Below are positions 3,687 to 12,214 of a DNA stretch of 15,014 bases, in pieces. The stretch is from a virus, in the UHGV virus genome UHGV-0054899; one strand, written 5' to 3'. Within the stretch, counting starts at the first letter, position 1, and every line of letters starts with the position of its first letter. The notes beneath the pieces are model-generated. The model worked only from the letters and a program-made list of their open reading frames with translations. It was not told where the DNA came from and searched no databases. A program made the position numbers and the translations under genes.

Positions 3687-3890
3687 ATGTCAAAGTCACC
3701 AATGAAACTCATGCTACGGGCATGGAACAAAGAGCTTAAAAATCCAGAATGGGGCATGGGCAATCGTAAACACCGCAAAGCTTGTGCTCGTGATTTTGCC
3801 GGAGCCAGCATAGAAACAGATGCTGATATCCCTAACCAAGCCGAAGCAGATGACCGCCTGGCGGAAGAACTTACTTACTGGACGGACTAA
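3687..3890 (+). CDS. hypothetical small phage protein
   Basis: ATG at 3687 with AAGGGG upstream; 67 aa. Confidence 0.5.
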   Translation: MSKSPMKLMLRAWNKELKNPEWGMGNRKHRKACARDFAGASIETDADIPNQAEADDRLAEELTYWTD

Positions 3891-3893
3891 CCC

Positions 3894-4091
3894 ATGACAA
3901 CTAACCACCCGGCGCACGGTCCTGTATCACTCGATCGCCTGCACCAGATAAGCGAAATACTCAGCAAAGCAGCAGCACAAAGCGACGGCGGTAATCTCGG
4001 CTACGCAATGGCTGATGCTGTGAAGGTGATTGATGGGGTTCTGGAGTCGATGGCCCGCGAACAAGTACGCCGTGAACATGCAGCATGGTAA
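3894..4091 (+). CDS. hypothetical protein; probable N-terminal fragment of the downstream MazG-like gene
   Basis: 65-codon ORF ending at TAA 4089-4091. The same reading frame continues open straight into the downstream ORF (see findings). Confidence 0.45.
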   Translation: MTTNHPAHGPVSLDRLHQISEILSKAAAQSDGGNLGYAMADAVKVIDGVLESMAREQVRREHAAW

Positions 4092-4196
4092 CTGGCTACT
4101 TTCGGGGATGTCGGCCCAGTTGGTCCGCTGAAGCACCTTTCCAAAGAAGCGCTCGAGGCCGCTGCGGAACCAGGCGACCTTAGCGAATGGGCTGAC

Positions 4197-4643
4197 ATGC
4201 AGTTCCTGTTATGGGATGCGCAACGTCGTGCCGGTATCAGTGATGAGCAGATTAACCAGGCGATGGTAGAAAAGCTGGCGGTTAACAAACAGCGCAAATG
4301 GCCTGAGCCGAAAGATGGTGAGCCGCGACTGCATATCAAAGAGCAGCCTGCGCCGGTTGTGCCAGAGGTAATGGCGGACCCTGACGAGAGTCAGTATGGC
4401 GGAACATATGATGAGGATTATCAGGCGGAATGCGCATACGTGGAGGGCTGGAACGCCTGCCGCGCCGCCATGCTTCAGGCTGGCAACTCTCCGGTAACTC
4501 CGGATGGTTACGTACTGGTTCCGAAGGAGATTACCTGTGCAATGGACGATGCGGCATGGGAGGCATATCACGAAACTAGATGCATGAGTGATATATGGGC
4601 AGCGTTACTCGCAGTAGCACCGAAGCAGGAGGATGTAAAATGA
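4197..4643 (+). CDS. MazG-like nucleotide pyrophosphohydrolase-like protein (DUF550/DUF551-like), possibly truncated or disrupted
   Basis: First ATG at 4197, but the frame is open from 4092 and the 35 codons upstream (LATFGDVGPVGPLKHLSKEALEAAAEPGDLSEWAD) look like conserved coding sequence. Family call is from recalled prophage nin-region proteins. Confidence 0.55.
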   Translation: MQFLLWDAQRRAGISDEQINQAMVEKLAVNKQRKWPEPKDGEPRLHIKEQPAPVVPEVMADPDESQYGGTYDEDYQAECAYVEGWNACRAAMLQAGNSPVTPDGYVLVPKEITCAMDDAAWEAYHETRCMSDIWAALLAVAPKQEDVK

Positions 4644-4780
4644 AACTATATGCACTGCGTAAAGATTGCGGTCATCAGTGGACAGTTACCGGATCACTGG
4701 TGACATGTCCTAAATGCGGAGGGCGTAGCTTTTCTGTCAGTACAGCACCGCAGCAGGAGGTGAAGCGATGTCGAAACTAA
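4640..4780 (+). CDS. small zinc-ribbon protein (46 aa)
   Basis: ATG at 4640 with AGGAGG 7 nt upstream, overlapping the upstream stop. Two Cys pairs: C-G-H…C-P-K-C-G-G. The track's longer 4595 start lies inside the previous gene and lacks a ribosome-binding site. Confidence 0.5.
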   Translation: MKLYALRKDCGHQWTVTGSLVTCPKCGGRSFSVSTAPQQEVKRCRN

Positions 4781-5456: not shown

Positions 5457-6050
5457 ATGCCCGCAGAACCAAAAGCACCAAAACGCAAATCAACGCAGTA
5501 CAAGCCACTCACAGCGATGCAGGAGGCTTATGCACAGGAATATACCAAATGCCCTGAGAATCAGACTCAGGCGGCGATTAACGCAGGATTCTCGCCTAAT
5601 CCGGCGGCTGTCAAAGCCAGCGTCATGATGCGTGATGAGCGTATCCAGAAACGGATCGCCGAACTGATGGAAGAGCGCAACAAGCGCCTGCGCGTCAGTG
5701 CTGATTATGTGCTGCTCCGTTTGGTGGAAATTGACCAGATGGATGTGATCGATATCCTCAACGACGACGGCACACTGAAGCCGATCCGCGAGTGGCCGAA
5801 GATATGGCGTACCACGCTGAGCGGTTTCGACCTTTCATCGACCATCATGAACATGGACGAGACATCAATCGAGACGATCCTCAAAAAAATCAAATGGCCT
5901 GACAAGGTGAAGAATCTCGAGCTCATCGGCAAGCACGTCGACGTCAACGCGTTCAAAGAGCGCCTGGAGGTTTCAGGCACTGTCACCATTGCCGACCGCA
6001 TGGCGAAGGCTCGCCGTCGCGTGAAAGAGCAGGCTGGTGGTGAAGAATGA
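5457..6050 (+). CDS. terminase small subunit
   Basis: ATG at 5457 after GGTGG. N-terminal region (…LTAMQEAYAQEYTK…NQTQAAINAGFSPNPAAVKASVMMRDERIQKRIAEL…) is typical of terminase small subunits. Stop overlaps the large subunit start (ATGA). Confidence 0.8.
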   Translation: MPAEPKAPKRKSTQYKPLTAMQEAYAQEYTKCPENQTQAAINAGFSPNPAAVKASVMMRDERIQKRIAELMEERNKRLRVSADYVLLRLVEIDQMDVIDILNDDGTLKPIREWPKIWRTTLSGFDLSSTIMNMDETSIETILKKIKWPDKVKNLELIGKHVDVNAFKERLEVSGTVTIADRMAKARRRVKEQAGGEE

Positions 6051-7528
6051 CAGCCGCATCCATGTCGCCGGAAGAACAACTCGTCGAGGATATCGCTGGG
6101 TTCACGTATGACCCGCTTGGCTATTCTCTGTATGCGTTCCCGTGGGGAGAAGAGGGAACGGAGCTGGCGCATGCCACTGGGCCGCGTAAATGGCAGGCCG
6201 ACGCATTCCGCGAGATACGCGATCACCTCCAGAACCCCGTTACCCGCCATCAACCGCTGATGCTGGCGCGCGCATCCGGTCACGGCATCGGTAAATCCGC
6301 TTTCATATCGATGCTGATTAACTGGGGCATGTCCACCTGCGAGGATTGCAAGGTGGTGGTGACCGCCAATACCGACAACCAGCTGCGTACCAAGACATGG
6401 CCGGAAATCATCAAATGGTCCAACCTGGCTATCACCAAAGAGTGGTTCACCTGCACCGCCACCGCGATGTACAGCAACGATCCCGGACACGATAAACGCT
6501 GGCGCGCTGACGCCATTCCGTGGTCTGAGCACAACACCGAGGCATTCGCAGGGCTGCATAACGAGCGTAAGCGCATTATCGTGGTGTTCGACGAAGCGTC
6601 CAACATTGCCGATCTGGTATGGGAGGTTGCCGAGGGTGCGCTGACGGACGAGGACACTGAAATCATCTGGGTGGCGTTCGGGAACCCAACGCGCAACACC
6701 GGGCGTTTCCGCGAATGCTTTCGCAAATACAAGCACCGCTGGAAGTGCGCGCAGATTGACAGTCGCACCGTTGAAGGCACCAACAAGCAGCAGTTGCAGA
6801 AATGGGTGGACGACTACGGAGAGGACAGCGACTTCGTGAAGGTCCGTGTGCGCGGGATCTTCCCTGATGCGTCTGAGAACCAGTTTATCCCATCAGGCCT
6901 GACACAGCCTGCCGTGGGCAGGGTTATCACTCCGGCGCAGGTCCAGCACGCTGCTGTAGTTCTTGGCGTCGACCCGTCTCACCAGGGTAAAGACCCGGCA
7001 GTTATCTACCTTAGGCAAGGGCTGCACTGTAAGAAACTTGGCGAGTGGCAACGAACTACCGACGACGTATTGTTTGCTAAGGTGATTGCCGACTTTGAAG
7101 ACCAGTACCAGGCCGATGCTGTGTTTATCGATTACGGGTACGGGACCGGGCTTAAATCAGTTGGCGATAACTGGGGCCGTAACTGGACCCTGATTCAGTT
7201 CGGCAGCGGTACGGCAGATCCAGAGATGGGCAATAAACGCGGTGAGATGTACAAATCAGCCCGCGATGCGCTGAAGCTTGGGGCGCAACTCGACAGCCAG
7301 AACCTTGCCGATGAGCTGAGTGCGCCGGAGTACAAGGTCAGGCTGAAGGACAGCAGGAAGATTTTGCAGGACAAGGAAGAAGTCAAAGAGTTGCTTGGCA
7401 GATCCCCGAACGATGCCGACGCATACGTGCTGACATATGCCGCTCCTGTGACCAAAAAGCAATTCAACTATGGGCAGCAGCAGAGCCAGCATGGCAAGGC
7501 TCTCACAGAGTACGATCCCTATGCATGA
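6047..7528 (+). CDS. terminase large subunit
   Basis: 493 aa, translationally coupled to the small subunit. Walker A-like SGHGIGKS, Walker B-like IIVVFDEAS, and a C-terminal nuclease-type region (…VLGVDPS…). Confidence 0.9.
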   Translation: MTAASMSPEEQLVEDIAGFTYDPLGYSLYAFPWGEEGTELAHATGPRKWQADAFREIRDHLQNPVTRHQPLMLARASGHGIGKSAFISMLINWGMSTCEDCKVVVTANTDNQLRTKTWPEIIKWSNLAITKEWFTCTATAMYSNDPGHDKRWRADAIPWSEHNTEAFAGLHNERKRIIVVFDEASNIADLVWEVAEGALTDEDTEIIWVAFGNPTRNTGRFRECFRKYKHRWKCAQIDSRTVEGTNKQQLQKWVDDYGEDSDFVKVRVRGIFPDASENQFIPSGLTQPAVGRVITPAQVQHAAVVLGVDPSHQGKDPAVIYLRQGLHCKKLGEWQRTTDDVLFAKVIADFEDQYQADAVFIDYGYGTGLKSVGDNWGRNWTLIQFGSGTADPEMGNKRGEMYKSARDALKLGAQLDSQNLADELSAPEYKVRLKDSRKILQDKEEVKELLGRSPNDADAYVLTYAAPVTKKQFNYGQQQSQHGKALTEYDPYA

Positions 7529-7571: not shown

Positions 7572-7991
7572 TTACTTAATGGCATCAAATCCAGCGTTGA
7601 TGGCTTCCGCAATATTGGTGGCATTGGTTTTATCGAATTGTCCATTCTGAATAAGTGCCGCATGCAGACATTGTAACTTCATGTTGTATAAGTGTTCGCT
7701 CATGTAATCATCATCACTTTTTTCTTTAGCATAAACAGCGCGAGAAATATCAAACACATTGCCTTTTTCCATTTCAGAACGTTGTGCCGCTATCCAGTCA
7801 TAGCACGTAACGCTAGTGCCATGGTCTTCGCTAAGAGTTAACCCGGCCAGTTTCTCACCCTGAATTACTTCGTAATGCATTTCATTGCCAGCAAAAACGC
7901 CATAAAAAATGCAGTCATCAGCCTGAACGATACGGGAATATTTTAATGGCCATTCATTTAGATACTTAGCCAACATATCAACTGTTTTCAT
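7572..7991 (-). CDS. hypothetical acidic protein of unknown function (139 aa), accessory 'moron' gene
   Basis: Only credible minus-strand gene in the window. Strong Shine-Dalgarno AAGGTGAG ahead of the ATG, own downstream terminator, and visibly lower GC than the flanks. No motif I recognise. Confidence 0.75.
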   Translation of the reverse strand: MKTVDMLAKYLNEWPLKYSRIVQADDCIFYGVFAGNEMHYEVIQGEKLAGLTLSEDHGTSVTCYDWIAAQRSEMEKGNVFDISRAVYAKEKSDDDYMSEHLYNMKLQCLHAALIQNGQFDKTNATNIAEAINAGFDAIK

Positions 7992-8002
7992 AGTCTCACC
8001 TT

Positions 8003-8026
8003 AAAAAAATGCCCACCGAAGTGGGC
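8003..8026 (-). terminator. intrinsic terminator or attenuator hairpin directly upstream of the accessory gene's ribosome-binding site
   Basis: On the minus strand: GCCCAC-UUCG-GUGGGC, then A, then UUUUUUU, running straight into AAGGTGAGACT-ATG. Confidence 0.55.
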
Positions 8027-8654
8027 GAACTGGAAGCAAGGGAGCCTTCCATGGCTTACGGGTTTACAACACAACGTCATCACAATGGCGTTCTGGTGTA
8101 AAAGTGACGGTGGTCAGCATCAAGGGAAACTGCCACCGCCAAAGGCTACACAGCATCGTTCTTATGGGCGCTTCATCACGGTCCTAAGGCGTGATTGGGT
8201 TGTGGTGGCCGGTGCTGAACTCCGGCTTGGCTATGCGACTTGCTAGTTGACACCGGAGTTTCACCGGGGCGAAGGTTTCGCAAATCGTTTATTGGGTCAG
8301 TGCTGGCTTGCAACGCGCTTACTCAACCGACTACAGCCAACGATATCTACTACCCATCAGGTCTTACACTTGCGCATCAGCCTGCGCATTCACCACAACG
8401 GAAAGAGCACTGGCTAACCAGGCTTCACCGACTCCTCACGATTATCGGTTCAGTGCTCTTACCTGTTGCATCCTCGTCTCTTCCGAGGTGTCACACCGTA
8501 TCGCCACGATGGTGAATCGTCTGTCCGTGCTTACCTAACACTGGCTTGCACATTCCGGCTACCCGGCTGGGGAAGTAGCATCAAGGGAACCCATCCGGAC
8601 CGCTGCGGCACATGTGCCATATGCCGTACATCCACTGCGTCACATCAACACCAA
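8027..8654 (-). ncRNA. candidate structured noncoding RNA or long regulatory leader (identity unknown)
   Basis: About 630 bp with no minus-strand ORF of 60 aa or more; the + strand carries only three mutually overlapping ORFs in all three frames with non-protein-like composition. Ends at a minus-strand terminator. Contains GC-rich hairpins, a 12-bp palindrome GGCACATGTGCC (8607-8618) and dispersed short repeats. Strand and function are inferred only. Confidence 0.25.
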
Positions 8655-8669
8655 TTACCTAAAAGGTAA
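8655..8669. promoter_or_regulatory. inverted-repeat site TTACC-TAAAA-GGTAA (third copy of the motif) in an AT-rich putative promoter region
   Basis: Read directly, in the AT-rich stretch 8650-8750 upstream of the structural operon. A TTGACA hexamer sits on the minus strand at 8691-8686. Confidence 0.4.
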
Positions 8670-8759
8670 TATCTGATGTTATAAGTGTCAATAGCCTACG
8701 CTAAATAAATCATATGTGGTTAAATTGGTAATAATTTAATTGCGTACGGAGCTATTGCT

Positions 8760-8966
8760 ATGTGTATCGGCAGCAAGCCATCAGTGCCAGCAGCGCCAGA
8801 AGTACAGGCTGCGCCACAGGAGCAGGATGCAGCAGTCGTCAGTTCTCGTGACGACGAAGAGCGCCGCCGACGTGCAGCAGCAGGCCGCAGTTCCACTCTG
8901 CTGACTGGTGCGCAGGGTGACACATCAACCGCAAACACCAGCGGTAAAACGCTGCTTGGTCAGTAA
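8760..8966 (+). CDS. small protein beginning MCIGSKP…, possible virion protein (T7 gp6.7-like by recollection)
   Basis: ATG at 8760 with GGAG 8 nt upstream; 68 aa, Ala/Pro/charged-rich. Resemblance to T7 gp6.7 (N-terminal MC-x-S-P-K, small size, position ahead of the portal gene) is from memory and weak. Confidence 0.45.
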   Translation: MCIGSKPSVPAAPEVQAAPQEQDAAVVSSRDDEERRRRAAAGRSSTLLTGAQGDTSTANTSGKTLLGQ

Positions 8967-10651: not shown

Positions 10652-10947
10652 TGGATATCGACGACGAAGGCCGCAAAACAGAGCTTGACGCCAAACAGCA
10701 ACTTCTGGCTCAGCGCGATATCGACGACATCAAGTTCGTTATGGGTAGCGAGCAAGGCCGCCGTGTTGTCTGGTCAATTCTGGAGAGGGGAAAGGTGTTC
10801 TCACCATGCTTCGCCGGTGATTCGCACTTAACCGCATTCAACGAGGGGCAGCGCAACATGGCACTGGCATTGTTTCAGCGCGTCATGGCGCACTGTCCTG
10901 AACAGTATCTGAAAATGGCCGCTGAGTCTCAGGAGAAAGACAAATGA
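10648..10947 (+). CDS. hypothetical head-morphogenesis-region protein
   Basis: ATG overlapping the portal stop, AGGAG upstream; 99 aa. Confidence 0.55.
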   Translation: MMDIDDEGRKTELDAKQQLLAQRDIDDIKFVMGSEQGRRVVWSILERGKVFSPCFAGDSHLTAFNEGQRNMALALFQRVMAHCPEQYLKMAAESQEKDK

Positions 10948-11489
10948 TCCGTAAACGCATGATCAGACTGAGAAACGACGGTAATTCGACTATTGCAGAT
11001 TTCTATGCAGTGGATGAAGAGCCGCAGACATTTCAGATGGACATATTTAACTGGACCGGATCTCAGGTTGTGGCTGATGCCGCTTTCCAGAACTTCTTTT
11101 CACTTTCAGGGATCGTTAAAGCTGCTGACGGTAACGCGAATCTCAGCATCAATTCGGGAAATCTTATATTCCCTGCTCAGGAAGCGCCGAGCCAGGTTCT
11201 TTTCAGTACCCGTATTAACGGTACCGTTGGTGGTGCGTCAGGAACGGCAAGGGAATGGATGATTCAGACCAGGCGCCCAAATGGCGACATAGTCGGATCC
11301 GAGTCAAGCGTGAAGGTGAACGGAACCAGCATCAGTAACCGTGACGATGTACTTGCCAGTTTCACCATGAATGAACTTGATCCGTTCACCGTCAGCGGAA
11401 TTCAGGTCGGCCTTTCAAATGAATCAGGCCAGACCATCACGTTGACCTCTGTATCTGTCAGGGTTCAACGCGTCATCAGCATTGATTAA
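10944..11489 (+). CDS. hypothetical structural-module protein (beta-rich)
   Basis: ATG at 10944 with AGGAG 8 nt upstream, ATGA overlap with the upstream stop; 181 aa rich in G/S/T/N/V. Confidence 0.55.
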   Translation: MIRKRMIRLRNDGNSTIADFYAVDEEPQTFQMDIFNWTGSQVVADAAFQNFFSLSGIVKAADGNANLSINSGNLIFPAQEAPSQVLFSTRINGTVGGASGTAREWMIQTRRPNGDIVGSESSVKVNGTSISNRDDVLASFTMNELDPFTVSGIQVGLSNESGQTITLTSVSVRVQRVISID

Positions 11490-11503: not shown

Positions 11504-12214
11504 ATGAATTTATTTGATCGTTTGCTGCATCGCCGTCTTTGCAATGAGCAACCTGCTGATGGTGGCGCAGCTCCTGCTGCATCTGAACCCGCAGCATCAA
11601 CTGGTGATAATCCGGCACCCGCTGGCGATCCGGCTAAACCAGAAGGCGATAAGCCACAACCTGGCACTGAATCCGACAAACCTCAGGAAGAAAAACCTGC
11701 TGATGGTGATAAGCCAGAAGATAAAAAGCCTGGTGAAGACAAAGAGCAGAAGCAGGAAGGTGCGCCGGAGAAATACGAGTTCAAACCAGCTGAAGGTCAG
11801 GAACTTGATGCTGCCGCTCTGGAGCAGTTCGAGCCTATCGCCCGCGAACTGAACCTGACTAATGAGCAGGCGCAGAAGATGGTCGATCTGTACGGCACCA
11901 AGATTATGCCAATGGTCCAGCAGCAGCAGGCGGAAGCCTGGCAGAAAACCACCGAACAGTGGGCTGCTGACGTTAAGGCGGACAAGGAAATCGGCGGAGA
12001 CAATCTCACCGGTAACCTGAGCGCGGCACAGCGTGCTCTTGCTCAGTTCGGCACACCTGAACTGAAAGAATATCTGGAAGGCACCGGCCTGGGTAATCAC
12101 CCTGAGCTGGTTAAAGCCTTCATAAAAGTCGGTAAGGCCATGTCAGAAGACGGCATGGTAACCGGGAAAGAAAGCGGTCAGCGTAGTGCTGCCGAAGTGC
12201 TCTATGGCAAATAA
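11504..12214 (+). CDS. scaffolding protein (putative)
   Basis: ATG at 11504 with AAGAAGGT upstream. N-terminal Pro/Glu/Lys/Asp-rich low-complexity region followed by a helical C-terminal part, immediately ahead of the putative capsid gene. Confidence 0.55.
   Translation: MNLFDRLLHRRLCNEQPADGGAAPAASEPAASTGDNPAPAGDPAKPEGDKPQPGTESDKPQEEKPADGDKPEDKKPGEDKEQKQEGAPEKYEFKPAEGQELDAAALEQFEPIARELNLTNEQAQKMVDLYGTKIMPMVQQQQAEAWQKTTEQWAADVKADKEIGGDNLTGNLSAAQRALAQFGTPELKEYLEGTGLGNHPELVKAFIKVGKAMSEDGMVTGKESGQRSAAEVLYGK

Follow-up and report, generated by a model that had tools for sequence, protein, structure and literature searches.

The window analysed here, a 15,014-nucleotide stretch of the virus genome UHGV-0054899, contains two open reading frames that appear to belong to one gene, which raises the question of whether the codon that parts them is a genuine lesion, an error in the data or a signal with a function of its own.

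The interrupted frame and the domain it encodes

The program-made list of ORFs gives the locus as two pieces, 3894-4091 (65 aa) and 4197-4643 (148 aa). Translation of frame 1 of the plus strand from 3894 to 4643 returns 65 codons, a TAA at 4089-4091, 184 sense codons and a TGA at 4641-4643, with that TAA as the sole interruption of a single frame. This retranslation agrees with the preliminary description, which had placed both ORFs in one frame split by the TAA alone and had counted 35 codons lacking a start between the stop and the next ATG. Across these codons (4092-4196) there is no in-frame ATG, GTG or TTG ahead of the ATG at 4197. The only near-cognate candidates in frame are CTG 4092 and CTG 4128, and as both lack a Shine-Dalgarno sequence an alternative start for the catalytic core was rejected. 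The Shine-Dalgarno pairing 5′ of ATG 4197 amounts to -2.4 kcal/mol, the second weakest among the 22 starts scored, with most gene starts in the window at about -6 to -11 kcal/mol. Because this pairing is very weak, ATG 4197 looks like the internal Met102 codon of the intact family rather than a start that has evolved as such. The features of the locus are as follows.

3884..3893, plus strand: upstream mosaic junction, where identity with ERZ916168 k127_55973 begins; farther upstream the two are unrelated
3894..4091, plus strand: 5′ fragment of the DUF550 gene, 65 codons and the premature TAA, ending at W65
4068..4349, plus strand: PF04447 domain in the conceptual read-through, residues 59-152, by Pfam profile match
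4089..4091, plus strand: premature ochre codon TAA in place of the Ser66 codon TCA, through a C→A transversion at 4090
4092..4196, plus strand: 35 sense codons without a start, encoding the predicted ExxE and ExxD metal-binding motifs
4146-4148 (E85) and 4155-4157 (E88), plus strand: predicted ExxE motif, by alignment to MazZ 7ODY
4185-4187 (E98) and 4194-4196 (D101), plus strand: predicted ExxD motif, by alignment to MazZ 7ODY
4197..4643, plus strand: 3′ fragment, called as a 148-aa ORF, with the C-terminal half of DUF550 and a variable C-terminal module
about 4350-4640, plus strand: variable C-terminal module, within the 3′ fragment
4366..4367, plus strand: downstream mosaic junction, where similarity to the nearest intact relative (L016) ends; the C-terminal module varies

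When the TAA is read through conceptually, the product matches PF04447 (formerly DUF550, now 'dATP/dGTP pyrophosphohydrolase' in Pfam) over residues 59-152, covering positions 2-95 of the 97 in the profile; the score is 139.5 bits (E-value 4.4e-41), where the Pfam cut-off (gathering score) stands at 23 bits. As this match runs across the TAA, the stop falls inside the domain near its start, which we observe directly, and the continuity of the frame across it is not due to chance. By profile score the read-through is a member of PF04447, whereas no uninterrupted ORF holds the whole domain, because the TAA occupies the position of an invariant Ser within it. On its own the 148-aa ORF covers profile positions 45-95 only, and the 65-aa ORF, which reaches only the first 7 aligned positions, gave no match in a Pfam search; at 90% identity it nevertheless clusters with intact DUF550 proteins of 150-252 aa from Citrobacter and E. 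coli. The family, which already has a name, is very large and strongly mosaic, its members being frequently fused to Lar or DUF551 modules, and more than 7,900 database proteins match the DUF550 gene at E ≤ 1e-20; an NCBIfam search of the gene returned nothing significant, and a PHROGs search returned families of unknown function only. Intact homologues have in common the N-terminus MTTN(N)HPAHGPVSLDRLHQI..., and every homologue crosses the site with this same N-terminus, which rules out two independent genes. In no relative examined does the gene begin at the counterpart of Met-4197 with an unrelated gene ahead of it, the arrangement that the preliminary description had named as pointing to independent ORFs.

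Among solved structures the sole significant match is MazZ of cyanophage S-2L (7ODY), found by single sequence and by profile with E-values of 0.006-0.011. The catalytic metal ions of MazZ are bound by E35, E38, E50 and D53, which are strictly conserved (PMC8342488). Once a 6-residue shift in the numbering of the deposited 7ODY chain is taken into account, the HMMER alignment sets them opposite E85, E88, E98 and D101 of the read-through. The likeness between the two thus comprises the four metal-binding acidic residues and W15, which align, while the sequence relation is distant (E about 0.01) and the gene described here is disrupted. S66, E85, E88, E98, D101 and M102 are invariant in 26 sequences, namely the repaired protein and 25 database homologues. 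The ExxE...ExxD signature of the all-alpha NTP pyrophosphohydrolase (MazG-like) superfamily is therefore present in the frame, yet outside both predicted products, with all four predicted metal ligands (4146-4196) falling between the TAA and ATG 4197. As to the four-helix-bundle MazG/HisE fold of this superfamily, AlphaFold2 modelled P0047, an intact homologue, as all-helical, at low confidence (mean pLDDT 56, pTM 0.33). A DUF550 domain from Acinetobacter phage SH-Ab 15497 has been reported to convert dATP and dGTP to their monophosphates (PMC12884076), and this enzyme and MazZ are (d)GTP/dATP pyrophosphohydrolases of phages with 2-aminoadenine (Z) genomes. Pfam scans of 20 neighbouring proteins in the 15 kb visible here detected no PurZ or DatZ partner, that is, nothing PurA-like and no HD-domain dATPase, and because such a partner is missing from the window the locus is not a Z-genome system.

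Origin and recurrence of the stop codon

The closest DNA copy of the gene, from E. coli (L001), is 94% identical over gene bases 1-446 and carries an intact DUF550 gene of 149 aa; it has TGG TCA CAG in place of the TGG TAA CTG of the window. Eight further relatives (L009-L016), found by scanning viral and metagenome collections with a 23-base pattern in which the codon was left open, all read TGG TCA CTG between identical flanks; a 29-base pattern around the codon gave no match in a genome contig collection. Because close relatives read TCA with the same neighbouring CTG, a single C→A change suffices, and by this comparison we take the lesion to be one C→A transversion at 4090 that turned Ser66 into an ochre codon. 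The stop stands at a sense codon of the relatives and one substitution away from it (TCA→TAA), as in a nonsense pseudogene, and this one-step relation is read directly from the alignment. An insertion, an intron or a frameshift is ruled out, the alignment being gap-free around the site with one base differing. The preliminary description had proposed, among other readings, that a nonsense mutation divides a MazG-like gene, and had suggested aligning the read-through with intact homologues; the alignment supports this reading, as homologues run through the site with a Ser codon and the position of the TAA corresponds to this sense codon.

At 97.9% identity over gene bases 1-473, L016 is the closest intact relative; its protein has 241 aa and ends in a different C-terminal module. 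Downstream of the stop the window differs from L016 by one amino acid in about 90 codons, and this single difference is too little for an analysis of relaxed selection after the stop. No second lesion was found 3′ of the stop and nothing there has decayed, and since, in addition, all copies of the allele are identical, the mutation is recent.

The TAA allele, marked by the sequence TGGTAACTGG, occurs in four contigs: the window (NODE_2299_length_15014_cov_3.19 of ERZ1310117), ERZ28576900 scaffold_1877 (SAMEA2162844), ERZ916168 k127_55973 (human gut, ERR321623) and ULUQ01006946.1. Its recurrence across several assemblies is a direct observation, and the arrangement of a 65-aa and a 148-aa ORF with the TAA is repeated in all three contigs other than the window. 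Two upstream gene sets are found among the four, one with an antirepressor, an O-like protein and lambda P, as in the window, and one with a DnaT-domain protein, a RuvC-like protein and Ead/Ea22, as in k127_55973 and ULUQ01006946.1. The two contexts are identical from window position 3884, ten bases 5′ of the start codon, to 5606, where the shorter contig ends, and scaffold_1877 equals the window over 10,665 bases save for one base near the contig end.

Predicted products and competing explanations

We propose that the locus very probably represents a real, recent and inactivating nonsense mutation of a known accessory DUF550 gene. Ribosomes that initiate at ATG 3894 would terminate after 65 residues, and the codons of the ExxE...ExxD core, which follow the stop and have no start codon, would remain untranslated. 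The possible output would be the 65-aa N-terminal module and perhaps a little of the 148-aa C-terminal fragment, neither of which would contain the catalytic centre; the 3′ fragment is likely to be poorly expressed. The 35-codon gap holds all four predicted metal ligands, so that both the 65-aa and the 148-aa product are predicted to be catalytically inactive, and homology to MazZ and the SH-Ab 15497 DUF550 enzyme points to a loss of the enzyme function. A truncated product from 4197, as put forward in the preliminary description, may be made, if only in a catalytically dead form, but it would miss more than part of a helix, as all four predicted metal-binding residues are absent from it. In essence the 65-aa product amounts to the N-terminal module (about residues 1-49) on its own, a portable unit that also occurs in PIGZ_00022, a non-DUF550 protein of Salmonella phage 65FD. 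The DUF550 gene here is non-essential and accessory, its loss presumably neutral, and the locus is an ordinary inactivated gene rather than a new kind of feature. The mechanism is likewise ordinary, one base change that creates a stop codon in a dispensable gene from a known, named family. The accessory nonsense pseudogenes of temperate phages (moron, nin and ea-type genes) share with it the single point mutation, the dispensable gene, the otherwise intact phage and the lack of secondary decay, with no notable difference.

Were the phage truly to carry TCA, the TAA would stem from a miscalled base or a faulty consensus in metagenome data of low coverage, a reading that draws on the k-mer coverage of the window contig, only 3.19 according to the contig name, and on the identity of the TAA contigs, which a search for SNPs found to differ by contig-end mismatches only and which may share reads or a cohort. 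Their record names (PRJEB4336, 'CHAT13') indeed raise the suspicion of one cohort, perhaps one sample, in which case the four may not be independent. We nevertheless regard an artefact as distinctly unlikely. TAA is given by different assemblers, as judged from NODE_, k127_ and scaffold_ naming, and a random base-call error is unlikely because the allele stands in four contigs and two upstream contexts. A context that is systematically misread is disfavoured in turn because the same flanking 23-mer is read as TCA in eight contigs. Assemblers of this type normally discard k-mers seen once, and provided that they do so here (parameters may differ) at least two reads would need to share the same error. 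The sequencing error that the preliminary description had kept as an option has thus lost ground to the agreement of several assemblers and two contexts.

With the allele taken as real, the stop could still be part of a functional split, in which low-level read-through or ochre suppression gives the full-length enzyme, or in which the fragments have non-catalytic roles. The portability of the N-terminal module of ~49 residues, which is also joined to unrelated sequence in 65FD and in L009, would suit such a role, as would a post-stop frame that is fully open and undecayed and the presence of the allele on two phage backbones. We consider a functional split improbable, however, since the stop is not conserved, with Ser in every other relative examined, since the catalytic core has neither a start codon nor a Shine-Dalgarno sequence and the start at 4197 is very weak, and since a lack of decay is equally expected from a recent mutation. 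TAA ends 10 other plus-strand genes and the one minus-strand gene in the window, and in 5 of those 10, the major capsid gene included, it stands in the TAAC context found here, so that TAAC terminates efficiently and a reassignment of TAA in the genetic code is ruled out. A phage-encoded suppressor tRNA was rejected as well, there being no tRNA gene within the 15-kb window. Because TAA is a normal terminator, because the window holds no tRNA and because no other relative has a stop at this site, there is no support for programmed read-through, for code reassignment or for a conserved split. That the ochre allele is maintained rather than accidental, having moved between or persisted on two phage backbones, we hold to be very improbable; if it were maintained, losing or reducing a dNTP-depleting enzyme may benefit the prophage or its host, and the freed N-terminal module and the dead C-terminal fragment may be regulatory or dominant-negative.

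For annotation, a recent inactivating mutation means that the 65-aa and 148-aa proteins, both of which are in MGnify, should be joined and marked as a single disrupted gene of the DUF550 family, and that the 148-aa entry should not be taken for a functional short pyrophosphohydrolase. Beyond annotation the lesion matters little. It is mildly instructive in that the untranslatable gap holds exactly the predicted catalytic core, and in that an identical cassette is found on two backbones with its junction about 10 bases 5′ of the start codon.

Phage setting, mosaicism and neighbouring features

The gene order of the window runs from an antirepressor through a replication protein with HTH_36 and DnaT domains, a lambda P-like protein and small accessory genes including DUF550 to the small and large terminase subunits, portal, a Bbp19-like protein, protease, a GP7-type major capsid protein and Bbp16. 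From about 3300 on it is 94% identical to the Salmonella phages PAT1, 65FD and 66FD (genus Uetakevirus), and it is also related to epsilon15, SPN1S and Enterobacter phage Tyrion. The other genes of the window are all intact and match epsilon15-like phages. The setting is that of an epsilon15-like temperate phage or prophage, in which the gene has the replication module on one side and the packaging module on the other. The nearest named DUF550 proteins come mostly from Citrobacter (C. freundii and C. portucalensis) and in some cases from E. coli or Salmonella, which makes Citrobacter or an enterobacterium close to it the probable host.

The enterobacterial DUF550/PF04447 proteins, which comprise EaA-like proteins of P22-like phages and RefSeq proteins of Citrobacter, E. 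coli and Salmonella, are the closest known counterpart of the gene. Their N-terminal module and domain are 92-97% identical to it at the protein level, they occupy the same place among small accessory genes beside Ead/Ea22-like genes, and their C-terminus is likewise mosaic and variable. Unlike them, the gene described here has a TAA at the invariant Ser66, and its own C-terminal module was not seen on an intact domain, as homologue searches found no intact allele with this exact module. Junctions are sharp at 3884 and at about 4366, that is, at the start of the gene and after the DUF550 domain. In the relatives compared (L004/L020, L016, L009 and L010) at least five different C-terminal modules follow the shared N-terminal module and DUF550 core, L009 having an extra middle module as well, and the motif GWNACR(A/T)AMLQ, which recurs across different modules, may act as a recombination linker.

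Immediately downstream, at 4640-4780, a 46-aa zinc-ribbon-like ORF with weak DUF7129 and Zn_ribbon matches overlaps the DUF550 stop via ATGA and is kept in all TAA-bearing contigs that reach it. As its own ribosome-binding site is strong (-10.3), this gene need not depend on translational coupling.

Three proteins of the packaging and head region, the large terminase (6047-7528), a 181-aa head-module protein (10944-11489) and the putative protease (11504-12214), have no Pfam match at E ≤ 0.01 and are clear homologues of annotated proteins of the epsilon15 group. The large terminase of 65FD (L002 4134-6584, 816 aa) carries a 322-aa insertion right after the Walker A motif GHGIGK, and the LAGLIDADG and homing-endonuclease Pfam matches of this insertion fit the description of an intein. 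In the window the terminase (493 aa) lacks it and shares 99% identity with the 65FD extein downstream of the insertion.

Between the minus-strand gene at 7572-7991 and a small ORF at 8760-8966, which precedes the portal gene, lie about 770 bases (7992-8759) without a convincing ORF. A comparison of this stretch with Rfam gave nothing at the gathering score, with a chance-level RyhB match (E 0.8). Its predicted RNA folding energy is well below that of shuffled sequences (z = -3.4 on the plus and -4.3 on the minus strand), none of 20 shuffles being as stable, and blocks of it are 97-99% identical to the matching ORF-free gap of Salmonella phage 65FD. Epsilon15-like phages may have a regulatory region here, or a large structured non-coding RNA.
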